Shown here piece by piece: positions 23,633 to 36,267 of a stretch of DNA of 64,000 bases. Every line of letters starts with the position of its first letter. The stretch's first letter is position 1. The DNA is taken from IMG/VR virus record IMGVR_UViG_3300045988_112808, one strand, 5' to 3'. The DNA comes from a virus. A model generated the notes under the pieces. It was not told the origin of the DNA and made no database searches. It saw only the letters and a program-made list of their open reading frames with translations. The position numbers and the translations under genes are program-made.

Positions 23633-24820
23633 TCACAAAATATTTATTCTAACCGGATTAAACACAAATCCACTATCGATTATCTTTCCAATGAAAGAAT
23701 CACCGATTACTTTTCTTGCTATTCCAATTGCTCCATTAATATCTGCATTGATCAGCTTCCCAATAGAACTTTGAAACAATCCGCGTTTCTTCCTTCTACC
23801 TAAGTAGGATTCTTGTTTCTTTAGAGGTTCAAAAGCAAGATGGTCAATCTTTGATGTGTAAGATTCCTCATGAGTAATTACCTCTATCCCTAAAAGATTT
23901 GCTTTGTAAACAATCTTATCAATCAATTTAGAATGAGGAATAGAAACAAAATGTTGGTTATTCCTTTTACCGATATTTATCTCGTTTTTCCATTCTTTGT
24001 TTAATCCAATGATGATTGTTCCTATATTGTTAGATTTACAAAAGTCTACAATGTATCTACTGATTTTATGCAATTTGTCTTCTATCCAACAATTTCTAAA
24101 CAAAGTAATTTTTCTTATTCTATTTGAAGTTCCCTTATTACCAACAAAAGACATCAACTTAGCTTTCTTCTTATTGTACCACTGATTTACTGATTTCATA
24201 ACCCGTCCGTTTATAATGAAAGAATTAACTACATTACTAATACATGAACATAAATTATTCAATCCTAAATCAATCGAAAGAAAATTGTCTTTGTTTAAAC
24301 CAAGATCAGTTTCCTTTCTTTCATAAACTACCTCTACTACATAACATGTAGCTTGAGGGATTATTCTAACTTGTTTTAGTTTGTCTTTCTTTACATTTGT
24401 TTTGATAGGTTTGATTATATCTTTAACAAAATAAATACAATTATCACCCTTTACCCTACAATTGCAGTTGGTGAAAACAACCATGTTTTGTTTCTTACCT
24501 TGTTTGTATGATGGAAGGTGAGGTCTATGATTTCCGTATTTAGAAGGATTCTTTTCAAAATCCTTCTTGAGTTTTATCCAGGATTTTATGTTTTTAAATA
24601 CCTGTTTAATCACCTGTTGGGATACATGATTAGGTAAATTCCTGAAATCGAATTGGTTTTCTTTGCAAAGTTTGTTTGATAAATCAAATTCCTTTAAATA
24701 GTTACCTGAAAAGATTCCTTGACGAATGTTGTAAAGAACATAATTATATAACAAGCCGGATTTGAAGCAAATATCCTCAAACCGGTTGTCTTTAACTATA
24801 TGCCTTTCAACTAATCTCAT
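23633..24820 (-). CDS. tnpB: TnpB-like RuvC-fold protein lacking the zinc finger
   Basis: Conserved LPNHVSQQVIKQVFKNIKSW helix; RuvC-I SIDLGLNN; RuvC-III NADINGAIGIA. No Cys-based zinc finger between RuvC-II and RuvC-III. Confidence 0.8.
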   Translation of the reverse strand: MRLVERHIVKDNRFEDICFKSGLLYNYVLYNIRQGIFSGNYLKEFDLSNKLCKENQFDFRNLPNHVSQQVIKQVFKNIKSWIKLKKDFEKNPSKYGNHRPHLPSYKQGKKQNMVVFTNCNCRVKGDNCIYFVKDIIKPIKTNVKKDKLKQVRIIPQATCYVVEVVYERKETDLGLNKDNFLSIDLGLNNLCSCISNVVNSFIINGRVMKSVNQWYNKKKAKLMSFVGNKGTSNRIRKITLFRNCWIEDKLHKISRYIVDFCKSNNIGTIIIGLNKEWKNEINIGKRNNQHFVSIPHSKLIDKIVYKANLLGIEVITHEESYTSKIDHLAFEPLKKQESYLGRRKKRGLFQSSIGKLINADINGAIGIARKVIGDSFIGKIIDSGFVFNPVRINIL

Positions 24821-29603: not shown

Positions 29604-30623
29604 TCATCGTTTTATCTTTTTAGACGGATCCCAATCTGAAGAGAAAGGGCATTCGTTTTTGTTATGTAATCCAAAGTCACAATAATAACACAGCGCCGAC
29701 GGGCAGGGTAGCTTGTTTTGCGAAACAGGCTGGCTTAGGGTGGCGCGCCGCTTGCTATACCTGGCTTCTTCTGCTCCCTGGATGTACGCTTGAAATGCTT
29801 TTACACTATTATCTTCAAAATCATACATTTTAGACAAAGTGTCATTTAGCATCTCTATAGATTTTGTTTTACGTTCCTCATCTACCTTAACCTTTTGGTA
29901 CTGTCTGGTCCTGGTAAAGAAATAGATGTTCATATCTGGCATAACTCCGCCATATCTTCTATAGATGTAAAATGAATATATAGGATGCTGTAAATTTGTT
30001 TCCAACTTCTTAGAGTCAAAAACCTTATTACCGGATTTCCAATCTATGACATAATGGTGAACTACGTTCTTGCTTTTTATAGCCAGATGAAGATCCACCG
30101 ATCCTACTATGTACACATGAGTATGAACGTCACCATTTATATCAACAGGCTTAGGAAGACGGTACGGCAGCACAAAATCTTCTTCGACTCCAACTATAGC
30201 GCCGTGTCTAATAAGTTTCTCACAGGGATTAAGATCACTATCAGCTATCATAAACCTATTCCCGTCTTTTTTAAATAGATCTACAATCCAAGCAAGAAGC
30301 TCTCCAGATTGCTTCATGGCTATCATCATATTTTCCGGTGATTGCCAAGGTATGTCTTCCTGGTAAGCATAGTAACTTATTGCTTCTCCAAGGTCTTTAC
30401 CAGAAGGCTGTCTTCCGTTCTTAAAAAAGTATTCCAGTGTCTTATGGATAACCGTACCATAAGACGTAGCTTCTTGTTTTTCCGTAGACCTTTTGCCCTC
30501 TACGTAAGTCTTATACCATTTCATTGGACAGGTAAGAAACGTATCTATCTGGGAATAAGATATGGCAAGACGTTTTACACCATTAAACTCCTTATATAGC
30601 AAATGCGTTTCCGGGACCATCAT
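29604..30623 (-). CDS. Cas4/RecB-like PD-(D/E)xK exonuclease with Fe-S cluster cysteines
   Basis: SYSQIDTFLTCPMKWY, VDLHL, IDWKSG, QHPIYSFY, C-terminal CPSALCYYC...C. Confidence 0.8.
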   Translation of the reverse strand: MMVPETHLLYKEFNGVKRLAISYSQIDTFLTCPMKWYKTYVEGKRSTEKQEATSYGTVIHKTLEYFFKNGRQPSGKDLGEAISYYAYQEDIPWQSPENMMIAMKQSGELLAWIVDLFKKDGNRFMIADSDLNPCEKLIRHGAIVGVEEDFVLPYRLPKPVDINGDVHTHVYIVGSVDLHLAIKSKNVVHHYVIDWKSGNKVFDSKKLETNLQHPIYSFYIYRRYGGVMPDMNIYFFTRTRQYQKVKVDEERKTKSIEMLNDTLSKMYDFEDNSVKAFQAYIQGAEEARYSKRRATLSQPVSQNKLPCPSALCYYCDFGLHNKNECPFSSDWDPSKKIKR

Positions 30624-30979: not shown

Positions 30980-31142
30980 AATGCTTGGTCAGTTCTTCTG
31001 GTTCTAAATCTTGTCCAAAATCCATGTTAAAAATATCGTAATTAGTAAAGCACTTAAAATCACTGTTCCCGCAGGCAGGAAATCTATGAATGCTGCTTTT
31101 ATTTCTTCAATTAGGCCCAAGTGTAACCTTGGGCCATTGTAT

Positions 31143-32843
31143 TTATTTTTTGTCATCTCCTTTTAATTTCTTTAAAGTATCTGCAATCGGAAGCTGATCA
31201 ATGACTCCCAATGCCGGAGCGACGGTCTTGACAACATTGTTAAGGAAATTACCGGTACTGTTCTGACCGCCGTCAAATACCGTGATATTTCCGAGATTAA
31301 TGTGCTCAAATGCTTTAACCTGTTCTCCAGCAATTTCTTTCCACTGATTAACCATCTTGTACTGGATGGCGATCTGAGGATTGGATTCTGCTGCTTCCAC
31401 CATAGCCTTAAATCCGTCGGCTTCTGCCATTAACGACTTTTTCTTACCTTCGGCTTCTGCCTCCAGCTTCATCTGAATAGCTTTTGCCTCTGCCTCAGCT
31501 TTTGCCAAATGTGCTGATGCCTCAGCCTCAGCCCGGCGTTTGATCTTCTCGGCCTCGGCATCAGCTTGCAAGATAGCCTCTTCCTTCTGGGTTTCAGCCG
31601 GCACAATCTTTTCAGCCTTAAGCGCAGCCTGAACTTTCTTAGCCTTAGCTTCTTCCACTTCTTTGTCTGCAAGCTCTTTTGCTGTTTTTACGGCCGCTTC
31701 CGATTTAACTTTTTCTTCTCCGGCCTTCTTTTCTGATTGAGCTTTGATAATCTGCAATTCTGATACTGACACAGCAACCTCCTTCTGGGCATTGTTGTAT
31801 CCTATAGACGCATTTTTCTCAGCCTCAGCCTTCTTAATCTGAGCTTCAGAGTTTTGTATTGCTATAGCTGCTTCCTTGTCAGCTTCAGCCTTGTTCTTTC
31901 CGACTTCTTCCATCCTTTCAGCCTCGGCTTTATTTACTTCAAGTTCTGCCTTAGATCTTACGATCGCCGATTCCTTGTCGGTTAAAGTTTTTGCGATAAC
32001 CGCAGCCCTATCTCTATCTGCTTGAGCTACACCAATCTGTTTTTCTTTATCGGTTAAAGCCAAAGCTATTTCTTTTTCTTTCTTCGTTTCAGCTACTATT
32101 GTTTCCTTTTCTTTTTCAGTACAAGCAATTTGAATCTCTTGTTCTTTTTTGGTATTAGCCACAGCCGTTTCTTTCTCCTTCTGCTGTACAGCAATCTTAA
32201 TAGCCCCCAGCTTCTCCTGTTCTTCGATATTAGCCTGTGCTTCGTTCAGAGCCCTACTTTCAGCCTCCTTACCAAGGTTCATAATATAACCGGCTTCGTC
32301 TCTAATGTCACTGATGTTGATGTTCAGGAGGTAAAGACCTAACTTGTTAAGCTCGTTATCAATGTTCTTTCTTGCCTTATCCAAAAACTCATCCCTGTCA
32401 GAATTAAGTTTTTCGATTGTCATTTCAGCAATAATCAAACGCATCTGACCGTAAACGATGTCCGTAATAAGATTTTCAGTAGATTCGGTATCCATTCCCA
32501 AAAGTCTTTCTGCCGCATTTTGCATGATCTCTGGATTTGTACTGATAGCTACTGTAATAGTCGTAGGAACATCTACTCTAATATTCTGAGATGACAAAGC
32601 ACCGGTAAGCTTGCAATCTATTTGCATAGGCTCCATTGACAAAACATCATAGCTTTGAATAATAGGCAAGACAAATGCCGCTCCACCATGATATAATTTC
32701 GCCGATTTCTTTTCCCCACCTGTCTTACCATAAACGACCAAGACCTGATTAGGCTTACATCTACGATACCTTGATAAGACTCCGATGATTGTCAAAATAA
32801 TCACTACAGCTAAGATAGCTGACACGTACATGATTGTTGTCAT
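31143..32843 (-). CDS. flotillin-like SPFH/Band-7 protein (YqiK-like) with long EA-rich coiled coil
   Basis: N-terminal TM helix, SPFH core, C-terminal KE/EA repeat coiled coil. Confidence 0.85.
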   Translation of the reverse strand: MTTIMYVSAILAVVIILTIIGVLSRYRRCKPNQVLVVYGKTGGEKKSAKLYHGGAAFVLPIIQSYDVLSMEPMQIDCKLTGALSSQNIRVDVPTTITVAISTNPEIMQNAAERLLGMDTESTENLITDIVYGQMRLIIAEMTIEKLNSDRDEFLDKARKNIDNELNKLGLYLLNINISDIRDEAGYIMNLGKEAESRALNEAQANIEEQEKLGAIKIAVQQKEKETAVANTKKEQEIQIACTEKEKETIVAETKKEKEIALALTDKEKQIGVAQADRDRAAVIAKTLTDKESAIVRSKAELEVNKAEAERMEEVGKNKAEADKEAAIAIQNSEAQIKKAEAEKNASIGYNNAQKEVAVSVSELQIIKAQSEKKAGEEKVKSEAAVKTAKELADKEVEEAKAKKVQAALKAEKIVPAETQKEEAILQADAEAEKIKRRAEAEASAHLAKAEAEAKAIQMKLEAEAEGKKKSLMAEADGFKAMVEAAESNPQIAIQYKMVNQWKEIAGEQVKAFEHINLGNITVFDGGQNSTGNFLNNVVKTVAPALGVIDQLPIADTLKKLKGDDKK

Positions 32844-32875
32844 AACTTTTAAAATTTAATTGTTGATAAAAAAAA

Positions 32876-33364
32876 TTAGATACTTAGTTCTCCTTCTTCG
32901 TATTTTATATTCACCTTGTCACCGTTTTTGTAAGTTTTTCCAGACAAGCATCTTACTCTCATTTGCTCCTGTCTTCCATTTTTCGAAATATTTACCATAT
33001 AATGATTCTTCCCTGATCTAAATACTATCTCCACCTCTCTGCCATTTAAATCTTCCGGACATTCGTACACCATTTCTTGCTTTAACTTAAGAAGTAACTT
33101 ATATACGTAAAACAAAACGATAAAGAAAAACGACCCTATCACAACCCCTACTAAATGAGAACCCGAAAAGTAGGTAGTCCAGCTATATCCAAGAATAAAA
33201 TGTGTTATACCCTTAAATGATATGATGTCTGATAAAGACATGCTTAAATCAGAAGCATTGTCAATATCCGTATCCAGATCAGATCCTAATATCGACAACA
33301 AAAACTGTATAACAAAAGCAAATGATGCTATTAAAGCCATGCATAAAATTATATCACTTCCCAT
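32876..33364 (-). CDS. NfeD-like membrane protein (YqiJ-like) with C-terminal OB-fold
   Basis: multi-TM N-terminus plus beta-rich C-terminus; immediately upstream of SPFH gene as in bacterial nfeD-flotillin operons. Confidence 0.6.
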   Translation of the reverse strand: MGSDIILCMALIASFAFVIQFLLSILGSDLDTDIDNASDLSMSLSDIISFKGITHFILGYSWTTYFSGSHLVGVVIGSFFFIVLFYVYKLLLKLKQEMVYECPEDLNGREVEIVFRSGKNHYMVNISKNGRQEQMRVRCLSGKTYKNGDKVNIKYEEGELSI

Positions 33365-33605
33365 ACCCTTCTGTTATTATTTTGTAAACAAGATCAGTCA
33401 TATCTTTGATGGTCTCCATATCATAATCAATAATAACAATATTGAATTTTTGTTCCACCATCACTTCCAGTTCAATTTGATCAACAGAATCTAATCCAAG
33501 TTCTTTAAACGTCACATCTTCTTCATGAACTATATCTATTTCCGAATTAAGAAACTGAGTAATAATTATATCCTCTATTATCTTTCTGATTCTTACTTTT
33601 TCCAT
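33354..33605 (-). CDS. acyl carrier protein
   Basis: LGLDSVDQIELEVMVEQKF phosphopantetheine-attachment motif; 83 aa, acidic. Confidence 0.7.
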   Translation of the reverse strand: MEKVRIRKIIEDIIITQFLNSEIDIVHEEDVTFKELGLDSVDQIELEVMVEQKFNIVIIDYDMETIKDMTDLVYKIITEGYGK

Positions 33606-35139: not shown

Positions 35140-36267
35140 TTAATACAATGACTGTTCTTCTTTTGTCTCTTGTTCCTGATTGTCCGTAACGTCTTCCACA
35201 GTATAGAGCTTAGGCGGCGTCGGCGGCTGGTTGGGGTTCACGAACTTCGTCCCGCCCTCCCCGTACATCCATCCATGTCCCGGCAGTATCTCTGGGTGGA
35301 TTGTATTAGTAAGCTCTTCCATACTAACTTGCCTTACCTTCAGTATATGATGAAACACAAGTCCGGCTGTCCTGAATGATGTTTTGTTTTCAGTTTTAAA
35401 CCTATCAAGAGTCTGATACCAATCTTTCCCAAATATCATATACTTATCCAGCCCGTACCTACGAGGATTGTGCAAACCTATCATTAACGTACATAACTGA
35501 CCCAGCGTATCAGATTGGTAAAAATCAGAAAGACGCGGAGGTTGCTCTTGTGGGCTTTTTATCCTTCCTTCTATCTCTCTGTTGAATTGGGATATGATGA
35601 GGAAAAATATGTTTTTATATACTAATTTAGCTTCGTTCATAACCGCCACCAAATCATCTATAGCCGACTTAGGATCTAATCCCATTCTTTTTATCAAAGC
35701 AATATGATCGACTTTAAATATTATAAGACGTTTGTCTTTGTGTTTGGTAGCTATATGATACACAGCCGCCTCAAACTCTTTTACCGTACACGGAGCATCG
35801 ATGTATATTATATTATTCCTGATTTCACCTTGAAGGATTTCAAACATCCTCATCTCTTCTACTGTATTAGAATCTTGCCTTCTTAATATTTCAGGAGCTC
35901 GCTTTTTCATATCTTGGCTCATTCTACGAAGAAGAAGATCTTGAGGATTCATTTCGAACTCGCAATTAACAAGAAAATAATCTTCTGCTTGCGGGTTGAT
36001 CATCGGATTCATCACATTTTCCAATATCTTTTGGGCCACATACGATTTACCTACAGATGGCCGGGCTCCTATGGCAATAGCGTGCTGAGGAAAAATACCT
36101 CCAAGCAAAGCCTCATCAATATAATCGTATCCGGTTTTAGCGGGGATAGGCTCTCCCCGCCTGTATTTCAAGATATTCTCATACGCCTCTTCCATAACCT
36201 GTTTAGAGGTTTTGAATATCCTTCTTATATCTATTTTATTTTTCAGATCCTCTTGCATTTTTGTCAC
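35140..36267 (-). CDS. dnaB: DnaB-family replicative helicase (RecA-like C-terminal domain only)
   Basis: GYDYIDEALLGGI...IAIGARPSVGKS Walker A. Confidence 0.7.
   Translation of the reverse strand: MTKMQEDLKNKIDIRRIFKTSKQVMEEAYENILKYRRGEPIPAKTGYDYIDEALLGGIFPQHAIAIGARPSVGKSYVAQKILENVMNPMINPQAEDYFLVNCEFEMNPQDLLLRRMSQDMKKRAPEILRRQDSNTVEEMRMFEILQGEIRNNIIYIDAPCTVKEFEAAVYHIATKHKDKRLIIFKVDHIALIKRMGLDPKSAIDDLVAVMNEAKLVYKNIFFLIISQFNREIEGRIKSPQEQPPRLSDFYQSDTLGQLCTLMIGLHNPRRYGLDKYMIFGKDWYQTLDRFKTENKTSFRTAGLVFHHILKVRQVSMEELTNTIHPEILPGHGWMYGEGGTKFVNPNQPPTPPKLYTVEDVTDNQEQETKEEQSLY

Follow-up and report, generated by a model that had tools for sequence, protein, structure and literature searches.

A host-derived NfeD-like/flotillin gene pair beside an acyl carrier protein-like gene in an epsilon crAss-like phage

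Three adjacent, co-oriented open reading frames (ORFs) lie on the minus strand at positions 31143-33605 of a 64,000-nt stretch of the viral record IMGVR_UViG_3300045988_112808 (the window; positions count from its first letter), where an initial annotation had described a trio of NfeD-like, flotillin and acyl carrier protein (ACP) genes. In order of transcription, the ORFs encode an ACP-like protein (83 aa, 33354-33605), an NfeD-like flotillin partner (162 aa, 32876-33364) and, directly downstream of the partner, a flotillin (566 aa, 31143-32843). The ACP-like gene shares 13 nt with the 237-aa gene upstream of it and 11 nt with the NfeD-like gene that follows, and an A/T-rich spacer of 32 nt (32844-32875, minus strand) separates the stop codon of the NfeD-like gene from the start of the flotillin gene. 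The three genes occupy the same position in >160 independent viral contigs and have ratios of nonsynonymous to synonymous substitution rates (dN/dS) well below 1, and are therefore real genes rather than chance ORFs. The NfeD-like and flotillin genes probably constitute an accessory operon derived from a bacterial host, with the ACP-like gene as an independent neighbour.

The window matches GenBank OR575929 (‘phage csAssE-Sib’, 151 kb, human gut) at 97.3% identity; this record is the crAssE-Sib genome of an epsilon crAss-like phage from the proposed genus Epsilonunovirus, with predicted hosts amongst the Bacteroidia and with repressor and anti-repressor genes (PMC11054128). A ‘flotillin family protein’ and an ‘acyl carrier protein’ are already labelled in OR575929 and in Table S1 of PMC11054128, with the middle gene labelled hypothetical or transmembrane, and the text of that paper is silent on all three genes. 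Searches of the literature (crAss and flotillin; NfeD, flotillin and phage; SPFH and anti-phage; phage ACP) returned no characterisation of such a module, so that the supposition that the trio had not been characterised in phages holds for the literature and not for the public annotation. The pair belongs to a known type, the nfeD-flotillin operon, for which an epsilon crAss-like phage is a new carrier; it is annotated publicly and had not been analysed before.

The flotillin possesses two domains with scores above the Pfam cut-offs, Band_7 (PF01145; residues 30-211, nt 32211-32756; E 7.6e-26, 91.7 bits against a cut-off of 23.6) and the C-terminal Flot domain (PF15975; residues 450-559, nt 31167-31496; E 9.4e-10, 39.1 bits against a cut-off of 27), the latter preceded by an extended helical region rich in Glu, Ala and Lys. 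The candidate N-terminal anchor is the hydrophobic stretch of residues 5-23, as read from the translation, and is kept in bacterial homologues. The protein is collinear with the human flotillin-1/2 chains, its sole sequence matches in the PDB, and can be aligned end to end with Escherichia coli YqiK, in agreement with its earlier description as a full-length flotillin-like Band-7 protein. The match to the NCBIfam FloT model (NF058507) is partial (146 bits against a cut-off of 700) and, judged from its sequence, the protein is a member of the flotillin family, yet no equivalog of Bacillus subtilis FloT. Amongst close relatives (P0049-P0168), flotillin length varies from ~410 to 660 aa through in-frame gain or loss in the Glu/Ala/Lys-rich helical region; P0147 is short by ~85 residues and the bacterial P0158 and P0168 apparently carry internal duplications.

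The phage NfeD-like protein has no match in Pfam, PHROGs, NCBIfam or PADLOC, and the Pfam NfeD model (PF01957) is unmatched even at E 10 by the phage protein and likewise by its counterpart in Bacteroides. When 1.84 billion representatives were searched in full with HMMER, a coherent family emerged, made up of 239 proteins of about 150-190 aa that share a common layout, consisting of a first transmembrane (TM) helix, an acidic DxDxD loop, SFKGxxHF-TM2, TM3, LVGR and a beta domain. For a profile of 66 members, one of which matches Pfam NfeD (E 6e-5), the best PDB sequence is YuaF (2k14), the NfeD protein that partners FloT in B. subtilis, aligned over the whole soluble domain (E 0.016). An AlphaFold2 (AF2) model computed on the 66-sequence alignment (predicted local distance difference test score, pLDDT, 88.9) has three predicted TM helices (residues 2-25, 50-67 and 70-93), whose hydrophobic segments are conserved across the family, and, beyond the acidic loop, a small C-terminal beta-barrel (residues ~107-162, nt 32879-33046). 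The best matches of both the profile and the model are solved NfeD C-terminal domains, which have an oligonucleotide/oligosaccharide-binding (OB)-type beta-barrel. An earlier AF2 model from a 5-sequence alignment (pLDDT 62), for which Foldseek returned weak generic OB folds, is superseded by this model. An hhalign comparison of the family profile with E. coli YqiJ (DUF1449) placed TM3 and the beta domain in register (E 0.017, probability 2.7%). An NfeD-type identity is likely for the middle protein, based on fold and profile and not on Pfam, and the earlier label of an NfeD-like membrane/OB-fold protein stands to that extent. In one 448-aa protein (P0252), possibly a fusion or a gene-calling artefact, a region of >300 residues is followed by a C-terminal part that matches the partner family over TM2/TM3 and the beta domain; DPPIV_N was matched by one member of the scanned set, which by its length is probably P0252.

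The ACP-like protein matches Pfam PP-binding (PF00550; 26.7 bits against a cut-off of 20.8) and PHROG 5934 ‘acyl carrier protein’ (E 2e-8), and has matches to 116 ACP chains in the PDB at E<=1 (best, 7.7e-6). In alignments, its motif LGLD-S40-VD falls on the DSLD site of ACPs with solved structures, such that the DSV phosphopantetheine site reported initially is present in the window as D39-S40-V41 (Ser40 codon, 33486-33488); the best NCBIfam ACP model reaches ~30 bits, far under cut-offs of 65-146. In an alignment of 122 sequences, comprising the 120 closest database variants (all >=92% identical), the window sequence and a second phage lineage (L085), the residue at position 40 is serine in 90, phenylalanine in 16, proline in 13, tyrosine in two and alanine in one. 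The attachment serine is thereby replaced in 32 of the 122 (P0310-P0429; L170-L177), with the DS motif present in the window protein and in most abundant variants, and the phenylalanine and proline alleles are found in 18 and 20 contigs, respectively, from different studies and in otherwise normal genomes. Most of the other variation falls at residues 41-48, at the start of helix II, and the remaining protein is almost invariant. Positive selection on this segment is unsupported, as synonymous and nonsynonymous variants are enriched alike (17N:8S versus 35N:12S elsewhere), and relaxed constraint fits better. The diversity-generating retroelement of the phage was rejected as the source of the hypervariability, with no template-repeat-like copy in the genome and changes that are not adenine-specific. 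The variability of helix II and Ser40 may reflect either relaxed constraint or a surface under conflict.

In the protein search, two flotillin homologues that rank among the most distant lie on metagenomic bacterial contigs with housekeeping genes around them, and both are preceded by a 165-aa gene whose product is 36-40% identical to the phage NfeD-like protein. A scan covering a single genome of each species found 107 relatives; in the 80 loci retrieved, to which the following figures refer, all belong to the Bacteroidales (Bacteroides, Parabacteroides, Phocaeicola, Prevotella, and allies) or to unnamed metagenome-assembled genomes (MAGs). Bacterial genomes match the phage flotillin at 62-67% identity (tblastn). 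The 165-aa partner is directly upstream of flotillin in 79 of the 80 loci, the one exception being truncated by the contig end, with a comparable spacer of ~40 nt, which bears out the earlier analogy to operons of the yqiJ/yqiK type. No homologue of the phage ACP was found within 4 kb of the operon in any of the 80 loci. As seen in Bacteroides thetaiotaomicron, Bacteroides xylanisolvens, Parabacteroides goldsteinii, and Phocaeicola vulgatus, the Bacteroidales operon consists of a 165-aa partner and a ~550-aa flotillin in the same order as in the phage, with a similarly short spacer, a collinear flotillin, and a partner with the same TM/acidic loop/TM/TM/beta-barrel layout. The phage locus differs from this operon in its setting within a replication operon, the ACP-like gene upstream, a small TM ORF downstream, phage-like GC content at third codon positions (GC3), and variable presence among strains.

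Global identity between phage and bacteria is 67-70% for flotillin and 33-44% for the partner, compared to 70-89% and 42-62%, respectively, among bacterial genera; the pair thus co-diverges. The SPFH and C-terminal segments are nearly identical between the phage and host flotillins. The arrangement recurs in the second phage lineage (L085), where identity to the window is 82% for flotillin, 62% for the partner and 38% for the ACP. GC3 is 0.40 and 0.34 in the phage genes, versus 0.42-0.53 in the bacterial flotillins, and has been ameliorated to phage values. These sequence comparisons indicate that the phage acquired a two-gene operon from a host long ago. The ~165-aa partners of Bacteroides, Parabacteroides, Phocaeicola, and Prevotella are without Pfam coverage (L090-L169; e.g., L107 3471-3965) and appear to form an unrecognised NfeD-like family; two MAGs (HGM04771 and SRR15730521_bin.29) each have two paralogous flotillin loci.

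A flotillin 67-70% identical to host genes, together with frequent deletion and nonsense alleles, could also be expected of host DNA joined to the phage by chimeric assembly, a possibility raised at the outset, or of a decaying recent acquisition without function in the phage. This explanation is essentially refuted, and is the only one of the four alternatives weighed here to be refuted outright. Insertion site and flanks are the same in the >160 viral contigs, which derive from numerous samples, and in a complete genome already published; neither GC nor GC skew breaks between the block and its flanks and GC3 is phage-like, which argues against a chimera. No bacterial sequence is closer than ~70%, and the retention of the pair in the second phage lineage and the low dN/dS of flotillin (0.035) speak against recent acquisition and decay. 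The flotillin block is at the same phage position in all 80 flotillin-anchored viral loci and in L085, confirming the synteny in related phages that had been proposed as a check.

Based on pairwise comparisons against the 80 flotillin-anchored IMG/VR loci, dN/dS is 0.035 for flotillin and 0.035 for the NfeD-like partner, both of which are under strong purifying selection, with values of 0.005-0.07 for the replication genes. The ACP-like gene has a dN/dS of 0.29 (range, 0.29-0.49), about 8 times that of flotillin. As a sample unbiased with respect to flotillin, loci were anchored on the neighbouring 237-aa gene (199 relatives; 80 retrieved, 78 informative), and flotillin was found to be intact in 54, interrupted in six and deleted in 18, such that about 31% of the informative loci have lost or interrupted the gene. 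With deletion or interruption in ~30% of natural genomes, the flotillin module is dispensable.

The most common deletion, shared by 15 loci (14 from the unbiased IMG/VR sample and L177 from a look-up of Ser-to-Pro variants; L177, L179, L186, L191, L198, L200, L203, L206-L208, L212, L244, L246, L247, and L253), joins position 32873, in the spacer, to position 31031 within an ATTTTT microhomology. The interval absent from this haplotype (31032-32872) comprises precisely flotillin and most of a 50-aa ORF downstream. At least five other independent deletion junctions were identified (examples in L087, L187, L216, L217, and L252), and some deletions fuse the N-terminus of the NfeD-like protein in frame to the C-terminus of flotillin (P0033, P0028, P0046, and P0047). 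Of the 18 loci with a flotillin deletion, 16 keep an intact NfeD-like gene; amongst 15 flotillin-less genomes, this gene has no stops and a pairwise dN/dS of 0.085. Its maintenance under purifying selection in flotillin-less genomes suggests that the NfeD-like gene can work with the flotillin of the host.

Across ~160 loci, in-frame stops are confined to the ACP (codons 22, 43, and 52) and flotillin (codons 405, 490, and 527), and none occurs in seven neighbouring genes. All three flotillin stops, in genes that are otherwise full-length, are TAG in place of CAG (Gln), in four contigs (L237/L051, L185/L079, L188/L080, and L196). Recoding of TAG to Gln or amber read-through would be an alternative to simple nonsense mutation; OR575929 has no suppressor tRNA and the other genes of these loci have no in-frame stops, and the TAG alleles are probably nonsense alleles.

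The initial annotation had coupled the ACP to the NfeD-flotillin pair, with remodelling of host membrane or lipid metabolism as the suggested outcome. In an integrated system of this kind, the ACP would carry acyl groups for the building or modification of lipid microdomains organised by the NfeD-flotillin scaffold, for example in a membrane-associated replication or assembly compartment. Such a system would be consistent with three adjacent, co-oriented and partly overlapping genes, a gene order kept in a second phage lineage, a position among replication genes, and the DS motif of the window and of most abundant ACP variants, though the overlaps are not specific evidence of coupling, because gene overlap is the norm throughout this phage operon. 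The coupling is not upheld by the comparative evidence: the host operon is without an ACP, the ACP is retained where flotillin, or flotillin and its partner, have been deleted, it evolves far faster than flotillin (dN/dS of 0.29-0.49 versus 0.035) and has diverged further between the two phage lineages (38% versus 82% identity), and its alleles include nonsense alleles as well as those in which Ser40 is gone. Nor was a phosphopantetheinyl transferase (PPTase), acyltransferase, ketosynthase, AMP-ligase, or other ACP-dependent enzyme found, either in the annotation of OR575929 or in a Pfam scan of 62 unannotated early ORFs, so the ACP synthase or acyltransferase proposed as a further check is missing from these sets. 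The integrated system is thus disfavoured, and we consider it very unlikely. The best-supported reading of the ACP-like gene is a separate, fast-evolving accessory gene that is upstream of the pair by happenstance. If it is a carrier, the protein must use host AcpS and host enzymes, and the frequent loss of the attachment serine suggests that any role it has is not strictly dependent on the prosthetic group.

For the host-derived pair itself, the reading that we consider probable is that an epsilon crAss-like phage of the crAssE-Sib lineage captured a two-gene membrane-scaffold operon from a Bacteroidales host. The NfeD-like protein would span the inner membrane with three helices and carry a small beta-barrel of the OB type on the cytoplasmic side, and the flotillin would be anchored via its N-terminal hydrophobic segment. 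By analogy to solved SPFH assemblies, the flotillin may oligomerise via its SPFH, coiled-coil, and Flot domains to form a large membrane ring or dome with which the NfeD partner is associated. During infection, the phage copies might supplement, or co-assemble with, the closely related flotillin system of the host, changing the organisation or integrity of the inner membrane in favour of the phage, and the module would be beneficial, though dispensable. Cooperation with the host flotillin is suggested by SPFH and C-terminal segments that are almost identical to those of host flotillins and by the retention of the partner in the absence of the phage flotillin.

Several points weigh against this reading. 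The host of this phage is uncultured and the timing of expression is predicted from gene position, and the dN/dS estimates rest on pairwise comparisons that are not independent. Selection on the NfeD-like gene after the loss of flotillin is not strictly proven, as the common deletion could spread by recombination, and the TAG flotillin alleles (three, in 4 contigs) could perhaps be read through and hence not be null. Further, the adjacency of the ACP, kept in two phage lineages, could reflect a functional link.

The presence/absence polymorphism, with several independent flotillin deletions, is typical of conflict genes and would be explained if the module were a ‘moron’ for superinfection exclusion or defence, with a scaffold that alters the inner membrane such that competing phage DNA cannot enter or replicate. 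A membrane protein encoded in an early-region operon would suit this role, as would a phage that is possibly temperate or persistent, given its repressor and anti-repressors (PMC11054128). On the other side, none of the three proteins matches any PADLOC model at E<=0.1, flotillin, where present, is under strong purifying rather than diversifying selection, and the closest homologues are core chromosomal genes in a housekeeping context, not in defence islands. No superinfection-exclusion system is known to employ an SPFH protein. Exclusion is accordingly an unlikely role for the module.

SPFH scaffolds of other types act on proteases, as in HflK/C-FtsH and the stomatin-NfeD proteases, and by comparison the phage scaffold could sequester a membrane protease of the host, for instance FtsH, or modulate it, stabilising phage regulators and swaying the decision between lytic and persistent infection. 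The phage protein is of the flotillin type (YqiK/FloT-like) and not of the HflK/C type, and its short NfeD-like partner has no protease domain, which makes protease control improbable.

A more speculative version of the host-derived pair, to which we assign a low likelihood, would make the NfeD-like protein the real tool of the phage. It would plug into the host flotillin scaffold and control the inner-membrane microdomains of the Bacteroidales, for persistence or a carrier state, the exclusion of competitors, or the siting of replication, with the phage flotillin as an optional co-assembling booster and the ACP-like protein as a pantetheine-independent binding factor with a variable helix-II surface.

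Compared to the characterised systems E. coli yqiJ-yqiK and B. subtilis yuaF-floT, the phage pair differs in that the sequence relationship of its partner to YqiJ (DUF1449) is not significant, its partner has no Pfam NfeD match and its flotillin misses the FloT cut-off. Solved structures of SPFH-NfeD systems include E. coli QmcA-YbbJ (8z5g), Pyrococcus stomatin/PH1510, and the NfeD domains 3cp0, 3wwv, and 2exd; the NfeD partners in these structures pair with stomatin-type SPFH proteins, and some of these partners carry a ClpP-like protease, whereas in the phage the SPFH protein is of the flotillin type and its partner lacks a protease domain. Amongst phages, the ‘flotillin family protein’ of Vibrio phage KIT04 and the SPFH lipoprotein of phage GIB1 are likewise Band_7 proteins, encoded by lytic phages and of unexplained function (PMC13239085), but these are ~30% identical over the SPFH half and have no recognisable NfeD partner, Flot match or ACP neighbour. 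Phage ACPs (PHROG 5934), such as that of the Yersinia jumbo phage fHe-Yen9-04, are likewise small PP-binding proteins, classed as moron or auxiliary; similarity to them is remote, at 41% identity over 49 residues (E 2e-3), and the lineage of the window differs from phage ACPs in its polymorphic attachment serine and in encoding no partner enzymes.

The trio sits inside a long minus-strand block of replication and early genes, between a DnaB-type helicase (35140-36267) and a PD-(D/E)XK exonuclease (29604-30623), and OR575929 encodes DnaB, primase, exonuclease, and helicases around it. The 50-aa ORF (31004-31156, minus strand), a candidate gene with one hydrophobic helix that overlaps the flotillin stop by 14 nt, is mostly removed along with flotillin in the common deletion. 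Its counterpart in L085 (52 aa) is at the same position and 34% identical, with a dN/dS of about 0.9; no family match was found in Pfam or PHROG and no counterpart in the bacterial operons. A scan for promoters and terminators found nothing above chance, using a sigma-70 consensus that does not cover Bacteroidetes promoters.

Elsewhere in the window, GC skew flips from positive to negative at ~22 kb, coinciding with the switch from plus-strand late/structural genes to minus-strand early/replication genes. A 395-aa ORF (23633-24820, minus strand), located where the GC content of the window is lowest (0.29), resembles an IS605-type TnpB by its RuvC-like ‘EESYTSK’ motif, and the absence of the segment 23611-24875 from the related contig L087 suggests an insertion polymorphism. 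The ResIII/Helicase_C helicase of L087 (10882-13335) is 817 aa in length and has a Hom_end_hint (intein-type) domain, while its counterpart in L085 is 472 aa.

As flotillin is optional in nature, the locus is an accessory module of moderate interest and does not amount to a novel system of three parts. Few viruses of the human gut are as abundant as the crAss-like phages, whose long coexistence with Bacteroidales hosts is unexplained, and the role of bacterial flotillins is still debated. The analysis gives a likely NfeD-type identity to an unannotated ~165-aa family of flotillin partners, and the natural polymorphism of the phage supplies comparison strains that are flotillin-plus, flotillin-minus, or carry fusion alleles. 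That a widespread lineage of epsilon crAss-like phages keeps a host-derived pair under strong purifying selection suggests manipulation of bacterial membrane organisation by the phage.

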